Counted from the stretch's first letter, positions 1 through 4,321 are shown. The stretch: DNA of 4,321 nucleotides from a virus (IMGVR_UViG_2778261593_000010:1-4321); one strand, 5' to 3'. Numbers and translations are program-made. Notes: generated from the letters alone by a model not told the origin.

Positions 1-402
1 ATCGCCCCGTTCACCATTACACCTGAACTTATCGCCGCGGCGAAGGATGCCAAAAAGCGGGAAATTGAGGCATGGCGTACAGAACAGGAAGCGCAGCCGT
101 TCACGTTCAAATGGAACGGTCGTACCTGGAACGCTGGCCCCGACTCACTGGCTCGCCTTTATCCGGTAGTAATGGCGGCGAAATCCGATACGGCACGGAA
201 CGAGATGACGTGGGGTGACGCTGATAATCAACAGGTGAAACTGTCGATGCCGGAACTGGAAGAACTGGCGGCAGCAATGGCGCAGGCGCAGGTCGATCGC
301 AATGACGAGATTTATCGCCGTCAGCGACAGATGAAGGACGTGCTGGATAGCCTTAATAATCTTGCCGACATCCGCGCTTTTCAGGCTGGAGAGTCAGAAT
401 GA
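1..402 (+). CDS. 3' portion of a phage tail-fibre-assembly / tail-chaperone-like protein (DUF4376-like C-terminal region); 5' end lies outside the window
   Basis: Frame 1 is open from base 1 to the TGA at 400-402 (134 codons with no stop); the ORF track's start at 172 is only the first in-frame ATG. Codon usage is typical of enterobacteria. The W/G/D-containing stretch (FTFKWNGRTWNAG ... MTWGDADNQQVKLSMPELEELAAAMAQ) resembles, from memory, phage tail fibre assembly / DUF4376 proteins. The stop overlaps the next start (ATGA at 399-402). Confidence 0.75.
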   Translation: MAPFTITPELIAAAKDAKKREIEAWRTEQEAQPFTFKWNGRTWNAGPDSLARLYPVVMAAKSDTARNEMTWGDADNQQVKLSMPELEELAAAMAQAQVDRNDEIYRRQRQMKDVLDSLNNLADIRAFQAGESE

Positions 403-1112: not shown

Positions 1113-1659
1113 CGGGGAAGCCATTCTGCTGCGCAACATCACCGTCAGCGCCACCATGCAACTACCGGACAAAGATATGTCCGGACAGTCAACCAGCACC
1201 ACGAGCGCCCAGCAGGGAAGCAAGGCTAAAGAGCTGCGCGTGTCGGGGGTTATTGATTTTAACGATGAAGCTATTCTGACCCGTATTTTTCAGCTTGCGG
1301 AGGCAACAGAAAGCAATGGCGCGAAAAAAACATATCGCATTGCTAACGCTACCGCGAAGGCAATCAATATGCGACAGGGGGTATTTTCTGGTGGCATTGA
1401 TGCCACGGAACAACAGGGAAAAATGCACTGGCAGGTCACCTTTACTCTCAGGGAAAAATTAAGCGTGCCAGAGAAAGCGTCTGCACGTAGCGGTTCGCAG
1501 AAAACCATCGCCAGACAGCAGACCCAGAACGGTAGCGAACAGGCACCAGACAAAGGCATGAATACGCAAAGTTCGTTCTGGAAAAAAATCAATGATGCCG
1601 TTGGCTCTGGTCTGGATGCTGTTGGCATCGGGAGCGTGAAAGAGGAAGGGAAAACATGA
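1084..1659 (+). CDS. Hypothetical protein, 191 aa; possibly a gpU-like tail tube-initiator/tail protein (low-confidence recollection), with a Gln/Ser-rich C-terminal tail
   Basis: Clean ORF with typical codon usage; GGGA upstream of ATG 1084; stop overlaps the next start (ATGA at 1656-1659). The segments LRVSGVIDF, ILTRIFQLAEATESNG and HWQVTFTLREKL resemble, from memory, P2 gpU-family proteins; not verified. Confidence 0.8.
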   Translation: MTQMIVLALDGEAILLRNITVSATMQLPDKDMSGQSTSTTSAQQGSKAKELRVSGVIDFNDEAILTRIFQLAEATESNGAKKTYRIANATAKAINMRQGVFSGGIDATEQQGKMHWQVTFTLREKLSVPEKASARSGSQKTIARQQTQNGSEQAPDKGMNTQSSFWKKINDAVGSGLDAVGIGSVKEEGKT

Positions 1660-3353
1660 AATTGATACAACGCTGCATGATTAATGGCGAACGGGTGGAA
1701 ATTGCCGATATAAGCCTTGTTCTTACCCTGAATGCTGCCGGTCGTGGCTTCATTTCTGTTAACAATCTGTCACCCGAACACAGCCTTGCCGGCGCAATGG
1801 TACAAATTGATCTCGGCCGTGACGGTGAAGCATGGCGCTATTTCTCCGGCTACATTGAGCGCGATCAACCTGCTGAAAATGGCTCACGTCGCCTTTTTAT
1901 TCGTGAAGCGGCTGCTGTGCTGGATTTTGATTTCCCTTGCTCCATGCAACACCCGACGTTGCGGAGGGTACTCGATAATCTGGGGCGACAAAGCGGTATC
2001 GTTTTTATCACTCCGGATGCGGATTATGCCAGTATACCAACTCCCTACATCACCCACAGCGGCAGCGGAGCACAACTGCTCAGCCAACTGGGGCGAGCAT
2101 TCAGTATCAGCGATTACGTCTGGCACCCTATGCCGGACGGTTCTGTATTTGTGGGAAGCGCAGCTGATTCACGATTTGCCAGTATTACAATGCCGGATAT
2201 TCCGCAACAGTACACACTCGGGCAAGGCGGCGGAAACAGCATCGACATCATGTTCATGGAAACTGTGCGACCGGGCGTGAATCTTCCCGCCGGGCGTATT
2301 ACCCGCGTAGCCCTCAACAACGAGAAAATGACTCTGACGTGGGAGCGCCTTACCGTCACGGGCAGCCCTGTCTCCAAATCACCATTACGCAGACAGATGG
2401 AAACACAGTTCCCGGAACTGGCCAGCGGCACACTACACACCAGGCTGGCGCGCGTCATTGCACCAACGGAATCCGCCACCCTGGGCGATGTGGCCGACAG
2501 CTTCCGTCCACGCTACGCCGTGGACGTGCAACTGCTCGATGAGGACGGCAACGATAAAAGCGATACGCCTGTTTACCCGGCAGTCCCACTCCCCGTCCCG
2601 ATGGCTGGTAGCGAGGCGGGATGTTTTGCCTACCCGCCGGCAGGCACCATCGTGGAAATATCTAACATTGAAGGGCGCCCGGATAAACCTGTTATCAGGC
2701 AAATCTTACCCGCTGGCCGTAACCTGCCTGATGTAAAGCCCGGCGAACAACTGCAGCAACAGCGCGCAGAAGTGTTTCAGCGCGTCACGACTGACGGAAG
2801 CTGGCACAGAGAAACAGACCAGCAAATCAGGGAGCAGTCAGCCACCCGCACAATTAACAGTGATGCAGAAGAGCGCACCACAACAACCAGAACAACCACA
2901 GTACGGGCAAACGACATAACCAGTGTTCTGGGAACCAGCAAGCTGGCGGCAGGACAAATAGAGCACCTTACTACCGGCCATTACGCGATCGCAGCCAGCG
3001 AGCATATCCAGATGGTAGCGCAGGATTTGCTGACTAAACTCAAAGGGGCAATATCCACAATTGAGCAGGACCTGACTGAAAACGTGGGAGGCCGCAGAAC
3101 ATGCCGGGCGGACGGCGGTCTGAAGTTTACAGCCCCGACAGTATTTATTGGTCGCGGTGGCTCACGGGAAAAATCCGAACTTAATCTGCTGACGTTGTTG
3201 ATTGATATTCTGGATCTGATTCAATTGCTGGCCACGCACACTGCAAACCATACCCACAGCAACACTGGCGCACCAATGAACAGCGGCGAACTTGCCGCAG
3301 ATGCCCTGCAGGCTACGAGCCTGCGCGAAAAATACGGGGACCTTATCGCCTGA
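1656..3353 (+). CDS. Large hypothetical protein, 565 aa; candidate fused phage baseplate hub/spike-like protein (gpD/gp27/VgrG-like N-terminal region, Thr-rich linker, C-terminal HxH tip motif)
   Basis: A 1698-nt ORF with a strong ribosome-binding site (GAGGAAGGG, 1641-1649) and start coupled to the upstream stop. N-terminal segments (LVLTLNAAGRGF, RYFSGYIERD, RRLFIREAAAVLDF, TLRRVLDNLGRQSGI) resemble the Phage_GPD/VgrG N-domain from memory. The C-terminus has HTANHTHSNTGAP, reminiscent of the HxH apex motif of gpV/gp5-type spikes. No Walker A or obvious nuclease motifs. Confidence 0.85.
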   Translation: MKLIQRCMINGERVEIADISLVLTLNAAGRGFISVNNLSPEHSLAGAMVQIDLGRDGEAWRYFSGYIERDQPAENGSRRLFIREAAAVLDFDFPCSMQHPTLRRVLDNLGRQSGIVFITPDADYASIPTPYITHSGSGAQLLSQLGRAFSISDYVWHPMPDGSVFVGSAADSRFASITMPDIPQQYTLGQGGGNSIDIMFMETVRPGVNLPAGRITRVALNNEKMTLTWERLTVTGSPVSKSPLRRQMETQFPELASGTLHTRLARVIAPTESATLGDVADSFRPRYAVDVQLLDEDGNDKSDTPVYPAVPLPVPMAGSEAGCFAYPPAGTIVEISNIEGRPDKPVIRQILPAGRNLPDVKPGEQLQQQRAEVFQRVTTDGSWHRETDQQIREQSATRTINSDAEERTTTTRTTTVRANDITSVLGTSKLAAGQIEHLTTGHYAIAASEHIQMVAQDLLTKLKGAISTIEQDLTENVGGRRTCRADGGLKFTAPTVFIGRGGSREKSELNLLTLLIDILDLIQLLATHTANHTHSNTGAPMNSGELAADALQATSLREKYGDLIA

Positions 3354-3392
3354 TCACCTGGACATAAAAGCCACATAAACGCCCATCACACA

Positions 3393-3417
3393 ACGCACGG
3401 CTTCGGCCGTGCGTTTT
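3393..3417 (+). terminator. Rho-independent terminator of the plus-strand operon
   Basis: Perfect 9-bp stem ACGCACGGC / GCCGTGCGT (3393-3401 and 3406-3414) with a TTCG tetraloop, followed by a T-run (3414-3417); 40 nt downstream of the stop of the 565-aa gene. Confidence 0.8.
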
Positions 3418-3475
3418 CATATCTGCCACCTGATTAATGCGTTCTGCGCGCCATTCTGGCGCTGTATGCGCACAC

Positions 3476-3514
3476 CGCGTAAACGGTGTGACGTAAAGCG
3501 TGAGGTGACGTAAA
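3476..3514. repeat. Short direct repeats: CGTAAA three times (3478, 3492, 3509), two of them as the 10-mer GTGACGTAAA (3488-3497, 3505-3514)
   Basis: Seen directly in the sequence; spacing 14 and 17 bp; lies in the ORF-free region between the two terminators. Candidate protein-binding iterons or a recombination-site remnant. Confidence 0.4.
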
Positions 3515-3895
3515 CCGCGCTACCCCCTCCAACCCGCGGGTTTTGTGTCGAAACACTTTTTCAGTTTTCTGCCATGCAAAAATGACCGCCAGCCCGCGCA
3601 GCAACTGAGGGAAAAGCGAAGATCTGAAATTTCACGCTTTGAAATTTTTTGCAGTTTTCAGAGGGATTTTTACGATCTCATGAATGGCAGGAGAAAGAAA
3701 ACAGGCTGATATTAAAAGAGTTTTCATACTTTACGTGGGACAAGACGCGATCGCGAAAGGATCGCATCAAAAAATCTTCAAACAACGAAGCCAGACGCGG
3801 CGCGGCCTGCGTAAGATTGAGAGTCAAAATTAAACTGAAAAAAGGATCAATACCGCGCCTCGATCGCACATGACGATCTACGCAGCAACAGGACG

Positions 3896-3917
3896 AAAAA
3901 ACCGGCGCGAACGCCGG
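3896..3917 (-). terminator. Rho-independent terminator on the minus strand
   Basis: On the minus strand: CCGGCG-UUCG-CGCCGG (6-bp all-GC stem, UUCG tetraloop; plus coordinates 3902-3917) followed by six U (plus A-run 3896-3901). On the plus strand the A-run precedes the hairpin, so it terminates only leftward transcription. Confidence 0.7.
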
Positions 3918-3960
3918 CGGAAGCATGTATCAAATGCGTGATTGAATAATGTCTGCGGTC
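3896..3960 (-). ncRNA. Candidate ~65-nt small RNA transcribed leftward, divergent from the hok-like gene
   Basis: Bounded by a predicted minus-strand promoter (-35 TTGAGG, -10 TATAAA) and a minus-strand intrinsic terminator (3896-3917). The interval holds no credible ORF (only a 6-codon ATG frame). Length is similar to Sok-type antitoxin RNAs, but it does not overlap the predicted hok leader. Confidence 0.35.
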
Positions 3961-3966
3961 GGGAAT

Positions 3967-3994
3967 TTTATATCAGAAGGCTGACGGGCCTCAA
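3967..3994 (-). promoter_or_regulatory. Putative sigma70-type promoter for the leftward small RNA
   Basis: Minus strand: -35 TTGAGG (plus 3989-3994), 16-bp spacer, -10 TATAAA (plus 3967-3972). By-eye match only. Confidence 0.35.
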
Positions 3995-3998
3995 CGGA

Positions 3999-4028
3999 TT
4001 GATACAAGGGAAAAAACCAGGCTAGAAT
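3999..4028 (+). promoter_or_regulatory. Putative sigma70-type promoter for the hok-like transcript
   Basis: -35 TTGATA (3999-4004), 18-bp spacer, -10 TAGAAT (4023-4028); predicted start near 4036, giving a ~145-nt leader. Its -35 lies 4 bp from the -35 of the divergent minus-strand promoter. Confidence 0.4.
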
Positions 4029-4078
4029 TCGCGCGGGTGCCTTTCGGCTGATGGCTGGAGGGAATACCTGAAGGCCGG

Positions 4079-4153
4079 ATGTGGAAAGGCCCCGGAAAAC
4101 ACTTTTGTTTAACCGAGGCCCTAACCGTCTACCCTAAGCAAGTGATAGGTTAG
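4079..4153 (+). CDS. Possible 24-codon leader ORF in the hok-like mRNA leader (MWKGPGKHFCLTEALTVYPKQVIG)
   Basis: ATG at 4079 preceded by GAAGG (4070-4074); TAG at 4151-4153; same frame as hok-like gene and ends 27 nt before its ATG. It may be fortuitous. Confidence 0.25.
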   Translation: MWKGPGKHFCLTEALTVYPKQVIG

Positions 4154-4180
4154 CGCCTCCCTGAAAAAGGAGCAAGCGCT

Positions 4181-4321
4181 ATGTCGCAAAAATCGCTTAC
4201 GGCCATCACGTTCTGCGTGACGGCAATCCTCATCATCTGGATGCTGCACGGTTCGCTGTGCGAAATACGGATGAGCTTCTGGGGAGCGGAGTTTGCGGCG
4301 TTCTTACAGTGTAAGCAGTAA
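4181..4321 (+). CDS. hok: Hok/Gef-family type I toxin (small membrane-depolarising peptide), 46 aa, closest by memory to HokA-type paralogs
   Basis: Not in the ORF track (below its size cut-off). ATG 4181 has a ribosome-binding site AAGGAG (4167-4172, 8-nt spacing); TAA at 4319-4321. Product MSQKSLTAITFCVTAILIIWMLHGSLCEIRMSFWGAEFAAFLQCKQ has an N-terminal transmembrane helix followed by the family-defining SLCEIR motif and an E-x-AAF C-terminal segment (compare Hok of plasmid R1: ...[23 protein letters not shown]...). Confidence 0.85.
   Translation: MSQKSLTAITFCVTAILIIWMLHGSLCEIRMSFWGAEFAAFLQCKQ

Follow-up and report, generated by a model that had tools for sequence, protein, structure and literature searches.

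A probable hok/sok-type toxin-antitoxin cassette of Hok cluster 72, without a mok start at the homologous site, carried as cargo beside the tail genes of an Escherichia coli prophage

Positions 3999-4321 of the 4,321-nt stretch of viral DNA analysed here (the window) very probably make up a type I toxin-antitoxin cassette of the hok/sok type, with its promoter, leader, antisense gene and toxin coding region; the cassette would be cargo at the right end of a prophage of E. coli that has an HP1/P2-like tail. The mechanism set out below, with its inferred transcript ends, Sok function, leader-ORF coupling and biological role, is based on homology with hok/sok of plasmid R1 and hokW-sokW of prophage Sp5. 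The hok gene itself is already known, having been annotated in thousands of E. coli genomes, catalogued and tested for toxicity, and what is mildly new is confined to the missing mok start of an abundant Hok cluster, cluster 72.

The toxin gene is a plus-strand ORF (4181-4321) that starts with ATG and encodes a peptide of 46 aa, MSQKSLTAITFCVTAILIIWMLHGSLCEIRMSFWGAEFAAFLQCKQ, with TAA as the final triplet of the window; the initial annotation had read both the 46 codons and the coincidence of stop codon and window end correctly. The strong ribosome-binding site that it had described is the Shine-Dalgarno (SD) sequence AAGGAG at 4167-4172, 8 nt 5' of the ATG; the SD of the identical homolog 72_1621 is given as 'GGAGC' in Table S2 of the Hok survey of Escalera-Maurer et al. 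(bioRxiv 10.1101/2025.08.07.668861). Kyte-Doolittle hydropathy, calculated over 15 residues, reaches its maximum of 2.55 at residues 8-22, and every 15-residue segment starting at residues 4-13 exceeds 1.6, a profile that is consistent with the one transmembrane helix claimed earlier and would place it at the N-terminus. The SLCEIR motif is coded by 4253-4270 and is the same as that of R1 Hok in the BLASTP alignment; as a hallmark of the Hok/Gef family, however, it was drawn too long, as only L-C-E is family-wide (bioRxiv 10.1101/2025.08.07.668861).

Profile searches, which had been proposed as the check on this identity, bear out the assignment. Pfam PF01848 (HOK_GEF) matches at 29.9 bits (E 4e-7), above its gathering score of 22 bits, with residues 7-44 of the peptide on positions 5-42 of the 42 in the profile. 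The full length of the peptide is matched by PHROG 251, 'MokW-like host killing' (E 1.3e-22), and the top match in NCBIfam is the HokA-like model NF007290 (E 2e-8, 34 bits). R1 Hok, the query sequence of which was first verified by 100% identity on annotated plasmids, shares 39% identity with the peptide across 31 residues (BLASTP, E 5e-7). Among 1264 Hok peptides, the residues M1, C16, T18, L30, C31, E32 and E41 are more than 80% conserved, together with C or Y at position 48 (bioRxiv 10.1101/2025.08.07.668861). All have counterparts in the window peptide (M1, C12, T14, L26, C27, E28, E37 and C44), and the spacings +2, +12, +1, +1, +9 and +7 between the conserved residues are kept. By sequence, then, the 46-aa peptide is a real member of the Hok/Gef family of membrane toxins. 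Searches with the peptide gave no match among PDB sequences and no matching model in PADLOC. Two more specific names were considered and rejected. Identity as HokA fails at the equivalog cut-off of NF007290 (89, against the 34 bits scored), HokA being in cluster 93 and the peptide in cluster 72, where clusters are those of the preprint, set at 60% identity. Identity as HokW was discarded because HokW is entry 35_712 of cluster 35; the 'MokW-like' label of the window peptide is a PHROG name only.

The hok ORF is more than a chance frame, since it has the Pfam and PHROG matches, differs between close relatives mostly by synonymous codons (0-3 synonymous versus 0-1 non-synonymous differences) and keeps its reading frame in relatives down to as low as 63% identity. 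Nor is it 'hidden', as had been claimed, for in loci that are 96.5-97.5% identical RefSeq/PGAP already annotates a Hok/Gef family protein at this position (WP_000078920.1, WP_000078916.1). NCBI and UniRef give the exact peptide the same name, 'Hok/Gef family protein', and it is indexed in 38,461 blocks of an assembly collection. The whole window is 96.5-97.5% identical to prophage regions in E. coli K_EC180, several ETEC strains and isolate AJ1, and some part of it, mostly a short part, is matched in 1748 of 5426 complete E. coli genomes, at up to 10 places per genome. A search with a 3-sequence alignment found only seven species-level loci, belonging to Escherichia, Salmonella and Citrobacter with the addition of three probable contaminant contigs. 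Assemblies under the names Planococcaceae MAG, Vagococcus sp. and Xanthomonas pisi (L014, L015 and L018) also contain near-identical hok cassettes, most likely on contaminant contigs from enterobacteria.

Toxicity on induced expression, the other check suggested for the gene, can be taken from the literature. Escalera-Maurer et al. cloned 45 Hok homologs under an arabinose promoter and found 42 to be toxic, the exceptions being 19_179, 60_1482 and 69_1540 (bioRxiv 10.1101/2025.08.07.668861). The exact window peptide is their entry 72_1621, from plasmid LRP137, in the 'high-abundance cluster' 72 (Table S2). As it lies outside the three non-toxic homologs, it counts among the 42 and is thereby, by exclusion, toxic to E. 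coli on induction, the source being a preprint and the assay overexpression from a foreign SD. The survey covers the hok coding sequence only, leaving Sok, Mok and mRNA structure unassigned; its authors set Mok and Sok aside as difficult to predict and consider prediction of Mok unreliable. They report that hok is enriched in prophages and not near defence systems (bioRxiv 10.1101/2025.08.07.668861).

The limits of the cassette were drawn by aligning the window with 20 related loci in four different genomic contexts. The block conserved among these relatives runs from the -10 box and GGGTGCC to a GGCACCC about 60 nt past the stop codon, with flanks that are unrelated between contexts, so that the boundaries of the cassette coincide with two complementary mRNA ends. 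The hok promoter (3999-4028, plus strand) consists of a -35 TTGATA, an 18-nt spacer and a -10 TAGAAT, with a predicted +1 at about 4035, and matches the consensus at 10 of 12 positions in a sigma-70 scan in which 0.8 +/- 0.8 sites were expected in the region. A TAGAAT, TAGATT or TAAATT box stands 6 nt 5' of GGGTGCC in nearly all aligned relatives, and the sequence farther upstream differs. The hok mRNA leader (4035-4180, plus strand) opens with the 5' 'tac' element GGGUGCCUU (4035-4043), which is part of a tac stem-loop domain at 4035-4093, and includes a Sok target region at approximately 4081-4141; the segment 4035-4095 folds at -33.8 kcal/mol (z -5.0). At its 3' end, an SD hairpin (4151-4181, plus strand; -13 kcal/mol, z -2.0) pairs the GGAG at 4169-4172 with CCUC, and GCGCUA, which runs into the AUG, with UAGCGC. 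This hairpin lies within the RNAalifold consensus of 17 relatives.

The Rfam model RF01794 matches 4035-4194 on the plus strand over its full length, at 42.6 bits (E 2e-7), which is below its gathering score of 59. A plus-strand match to a 'sok' model looked wrong for an antisense RNA, an objection dismissed by a control on an R1-type plasmid locus, where the model matched, at 87.2 bits, the hok-sense strand between the 5' end of the mRNA and the hok ATG. RF01794 therefore describes the hok leader, and the match in the window is in the right register. The Stx-phage variant of cluster 72 scores 33.1 bits with the same model.

An antisense Sok gene with its own promoter inside the hok leader is predicted, in silico only. 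Its promoter (4147-4175, minus strand) would comprise a -35 TTGCTC (4175->4170), a 17-nt spacer and a -10 TAACCT (4152->4147). It was not reported by a simple sigma-70 scan of the window, because the -10 matches the consensus at 3/6 positions; AGGTTAG, the complement of the sok -10 region, is invariant in all relatives. In hokW-sokW of Sp5 the wild type reads ...CACATGTAGGTTAGCCTCTTACG..., and the primer YO-421, used for a 'promoter-less' sokW mutant that lost antitoxin activity, reads CCGGCTCGCCTCTTACG... (PMC8621323). On comparison of the two, the stretch altered by YO-421 appears to be TAGGTTA, the complement of TAACCTA and homologous to the sok -10 of the window, which anchors the predicted box to an experiment. 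The predicted Sok-like RNA of about 60 nt (4081-4141, minus strand, ends approximate) would have about 20 nt of single-stranded tail at its 5' end (UUGCUUAGGGUAGACGG...), after which come a GC-rich hairpin (4122->4084) and UUUCC, and folds at -23.8 kcal/mol (z -3.1). In 12 sequence variants the hairpin is worth -21 to -29 kcal/mol on the minus strand versus -12 to -16 on the plus strand, where G.U pairs turn into C.A mismatches and make it weaker, the minus-strand form being 8-17 kcal/mol more stable. The inner stem has been swapped for another, still pairing sequence in four of the related loci (L003, L012, L017 and L020). Together, the strand asymmetry and the swapped stems argue that the hairpin is selected on a minus-strand transcript.

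The 3' UTR, in which complementarity to the mRNA 5' end had been suggested as a further check, lies beyond base 4321 for the window, and was examined in relatives. In 17 of them GGCACCC is found about 60 nt past the stop codon, complementary to the 5' end GGGUGCC; RNAalifold pairs columns 1-7 (GGGUGCC) with the last seven (GGCACCC) in 17/17 full-length sequences, and the partition function gives this pairing a probability of about 1.0 in every one of them. All 7 pairs of this tac/fbi core are invariant and hence without covariation support. A second long-range helix, of the ucb/dcb type, is predicted by MFE folding and is paired in 86% of cells, with one compensatory pair, a level that is not above shuffles (47/500). 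As the window has no 3' UTR, a chimera of window 4035-4321 and the 66-nt 3' UTR of a 96.5%-identical locus (L010) was folded. In the full-length chimera the 3' end is paired to nt 1-11, the 3'-UTR sequence UUGCCAGGGU covers the Sok target ACCCUAAGCAA (4131-4141), whose P(unpaired) is 0.21, the AUG at 4079 of a short leader ORF has 0.03, and the hok SD, paired with CCUC, has 0.02. When the last 30 nt are removed the 5' end shifts into the tac stem 4035-4093, and the values rise to 0.88 for the Sok target and 0.66 for AUG 4079, with the hok SD at 0.04, so that the SD stays within 0.02-0.04 in both folds. Removal of the 3' 30 nt opens the Sok target in 16 of the 17 relatives (from 0.12-0.44 to 0.59-0.90), and the hok SD stays paired. 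As a prediction only, this folding switch agrees with the published R1 scheme, in which an inert full-length mRNA is contrasted with a 3'-trimmed form to which both Sok and translation of the leader have access.

The cassette departs from that scheme at mok. The conserved GAGG is kept at 4115-4118, but the codon at the place of the mok start is GTC and not ATG. Compared with hokW, the window has 8 nt fewer between the sok -10 box and the hok ATG, as a result of which AGGTTAG supplies an in-frame TAG (4151-4153), a stop that all relatives keep without variation; a mok frame that follows the GAGG and overlaps the hok start is thus absent from the window. A mok overlapping hok in the -1 frame was considered and rejected, as TGA 4162-4164 closes this frame in the window and it contains no canonical start 5' of the hok ATG. 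With the GTC, the TAG and the closed -1 frame taken together, canonical mok is absent. What the leader does contain is a 24-codon ORF (4079-4153, plus strand; MWKGPGKHFCLTEALTVYPKQVIG), without a Pfam match, the stop of which, TAG 4151-4153, is the first triplet of the SD hairpin. AUG 4079 is present in all relatives except the two most divergent, and in every relative some leader ORF either overlaps the hok ATG or comes as close to it as 35 nt or less. This ORF is a possible functional analogue of mok, a role that is put forward tentatively because frame, length and stop vary by locus; for the same reason the coupling step may work differently.

In the proposed mechanism, a stable hok mRNA would start at about 4035, and in its full-length form GGGUGCCUU would pair with the 3' element AAGGCACCC, about 60 nt beyond the stop and outside the window, and the second 3'-UTR box UUGCCAGGGU would cover the Sok target ACCCUAAGCAA, allowing neither translation nor Sok binding. 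Slow trimming of the 3' end would then free the 5' end to form the tac stem, exposing the AUG of the leader ORF along with the Sok target. As long as the unstable Sok-like RNA (~4141->4081) is made, it would pair with the leader, block translation and trigger decay. Once Sok is exhausted, translation of the leader would open the SD/AUG hairpin, and the 46-aa Hok would be made, insert in the inner membrane and kill or lyse the cell. It is possible, if on balance doubtful, that the cassettes of cluster 72 have lost the canonical mok start and control Hok synthesis in a manner unlike R1 and hokW, either by unmasking that depends on termination of the leader ORF or with no translational coupling at all. 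Under the former option, the short leader ORF would end at the foot of the SD hairpin, 27 nt 5' of the hok AUG.

The strongest competitor to the coupled scheme, and one to which a distinct minority of the probability is given, is a real Hok toxin whose translation is controlled without any mok-like coupling, Sok acting only through RNase III cleavage or mRNA decay, or through long-range refolding with a direct effect on the AAGGAG SD; the locus would then be a regulatory variant of hok/sok that has no mok. The GTC in place of ATG and the invariant TAG that ends the frame speak for it, as do the varied starts, frames and stops of the leader ORFs in relatives, the strong SD that hok has of its own and the view of the survey authors on the predictability of Mok. 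Against this, synthesis of R1 Hok requires translation of mok up to the hok SD, and the SD of the window is sequestered in all predicted conformers, so that something must open it. The position of a leader ORF close to or across the hok ATG in every relative, and the accessibility of AUG 4079 exactly upon removal of the 3' end, likewise speak against it.

Sequestration of the SD in every fold can also be read as a sign that the locus is a silent or decaying hok relic, like several chromosomal hok loci of E. coli K-12, with an unexpressed ORF or a dead antitoxin gene and hence no effect in the cell. The sok -10, with its 3/6 match overlooked by the scan, and the missing mok start with its frame closed by TAG point the same way, yet this account is improbable. 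Promoter, tac, Sok hairpin, SD hairpin and CDS are intact and conserved across four prophage contexts, close relatives differ mostly by synonymous codons, the cassette contains neither an IS element nor a frameshift, and the peptide is toxic when expressed, by the exclusion described for the preprint. Moreover, thousands of genomes would be unlikely to keep a toxic ORF behind an intact promoter if no antidote were working. The same toxicity bears on the idea that the frame is open by chance and that only a non-coding RNA is real here. The ORF is indeed very short and the region does contain conserved RNA structure, but significant profile matches in three independent libraries, the presence of every family-conserved residue and the mostly synonymous substitutions leave this reading effectively refuted.

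On the same strand 5' of hok lie tail genes, namely the end of a DUF4376 tail-fibre gene, a 237-aa ORF, an HP1-ORF34 baseplate-complex protein (Pfam E 8e-54) and a 565-aa baseplate/spike protein (1656-3353). The last of these matches the PHROG 2258 baseplate protein over its full length (E 2e-230), with weak, sub-threshold matches to the spike domains of Pfam and TIGRFAM (Phage_base_V, VgrG); the phage-tail-like operon reported earlier beside the toxin gene is confirmed by the HP1 ORF34 and PHROG 2258 matches. In most genomes RefSeq gives the 565-aa protein as 'hypothetical protein', and in a single genome as 'type VI secretion system Vgr family protein'; it is most likely a phage tail spike or hub and not a component of a type VI secretion system. 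Window 1-326, with the end of the tail-fibre gene, is 99% identical to phage phiP27, and the phage collection contains no match to the window between 326 and the hok cassette. The mosaic junction at about 326 is typical of tail-fibre exchange. Directly 3' of the 565-aa gene, a plus-strand hairpin (3392-3419; -18.7 kcal/mol, z -7.0) is followed by UUUUCAU, has compensatory changes in its stem in two of the related loci (L010 and L017) and was missed by a simple terminator scan; it is probably the terminator of the tail operon.

Between the 565-aa gene and the hok ORF lies a spacer of 827 nt (3354-4180), which had been called ORF-free. It contains no supported gene, as its ORFs have no Pfam match and the corresponding loci of relatives no RefSeq annotation there, but ORFs of up to 82 aa are listed in it, and the wording of the initial annotation holds only in the former sense. 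The part from the tail operon to the hok promoter (3418-3998, about 580 nt) occurs in 50 of 5426 E. coli genomes, where it is 92-98% conserved, as it is in E. albertii, with no annotated feature in any record and no match to Pfam (for its ORFs), Rfam or the phage collection. On the minus strand at 3893-3994, a promoter-like TTGAGG-18-TAAAAT (3994->3965; 9/12 positions) is followed about 50 nt on by a good terminator on that strand, a stem (3918->3901) with TTTTT. This arrangement weakly suggests a small RNA of about 65 nt (~3958->3893), divergent from hok, whose fold has a z of only -1.1 and which matches no Rfam family.

The prophage-boundary context claimed for the cassette holds in relatives and is not visible within the window itself. 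Both of the closest annotated loci have the cassette as their last or almost last prophage feature, with host genes 0.2-1.7 kb downstream, one of the loci having flk 1.2 kb downstream and the other raiA after three small cargo genes. In P2-like prophages and phages (P88, Xuanwuvirus, Chuche) the same hok cassette follows gpD-ogr at the right end, and in P2-like prophages hok adjoins the host junction; no paper was found by a literature search that paired Hok with P2-like prophage. A 74%-identical variant of the cassette stands after lom in Stx phages. These phages carry two hok loci, hokW-sokW (51-aa HokW, with in-frame mokW) and a cluster-72 cassette (46 aa, 72_1589) just 3' of lom, as seen in Shigella phage 75/02 Stx (L012, 1526-1880) and VT2-Sakai (L022, 501-890), and the cluster-72 cassette has been left unannotated in several records. 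In its prophage, the cassette could serve prophage retention, help lysis on induction as for hokW, or exclude other phages; for retention the precedent is post-segregational killing, by which plasmids or prophages are kept.

Beyond correct annotation the locus has little significance, being a routine and widely annotated prophage cargo module. It does bear out, in this instance, that a type I toxin can be recognised from sequence alone, without tools. A regulatory lead is offered by cluster 72 without a mok start at the conserved site, namely whether mok-type coupling is dispensable, or has been replaced, in a large share of natural hok loci. The value of this lead lies in the abundance of the cluster, the lack of the mok start and the fact that Sok, leader ORF and mRNA folding are unassigned in the accessible literature.

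Among known systems, homolog 72_1621 has the same 46-aa peptide, and the gene itself shows no difference from it; the loci of WP_000078920.1 and WP_000078916.1 have the same cassette at the same position in E. coli prophages with 96.5-97.5% identity. HokA of E. coli K-12 (NF007290) shares the C-terminal motif ...AAFL.C.. with the window peptide, which some databases label 'protein HokA', although HokA belongs to cluster 93 and the window peptide to cluster 72. The R1 hok/sok (parB) locus has in common with the window cassette the promoter, the SLCEIR core of the toxin and, as predicted for the window, an antisense Sok with a promoter inside the leader; tac/fbi pairing of the mRNA ends would be a further shared feature, its 5' half being present in the window and its 3' half known from relatives. 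It differs in being carried on a plasmid and not on a prophage, in the length of Hok (52 aa against 46, with identity limited to the 39% across 31 residues), in the higher RF01794 score of an R1-type locus (87.2 against 42.6 bits), in the sok -35, which adjoins the hok SD in an R1-type locus and overlaps it in the window, and in having a mok start where the window has none at the homologous site. The hokW-sokW system of the Stx2 prophage Sp5/933W (Takada et al. 2021, PMC8621323) is likewise a prophage-borne hok/sok, and shares with the window the TAGAAT -10 box 6 nt before a GGGUGC 5' end, the (A)GGTTAG sok -10 box and the GAGG, as well as a complementary 3' element and a 3'-UTR hairpin, these last two being found in the relatives of the window. 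HokW differs in having 51 aa, beginning MKQQKAM... and falling in cluster 35, against 46 aa and cluster 72 for the window peptide, and the ATG of its in-frame mokW lies 8 nt after the GAGG, 19 codons 5' of the hok ATG, where the window has GTC. For hokW-sokW, both type I toxin-antitoxin function and an aid to lysis after mitomycin C have been shown experimentally (PMC8621323).
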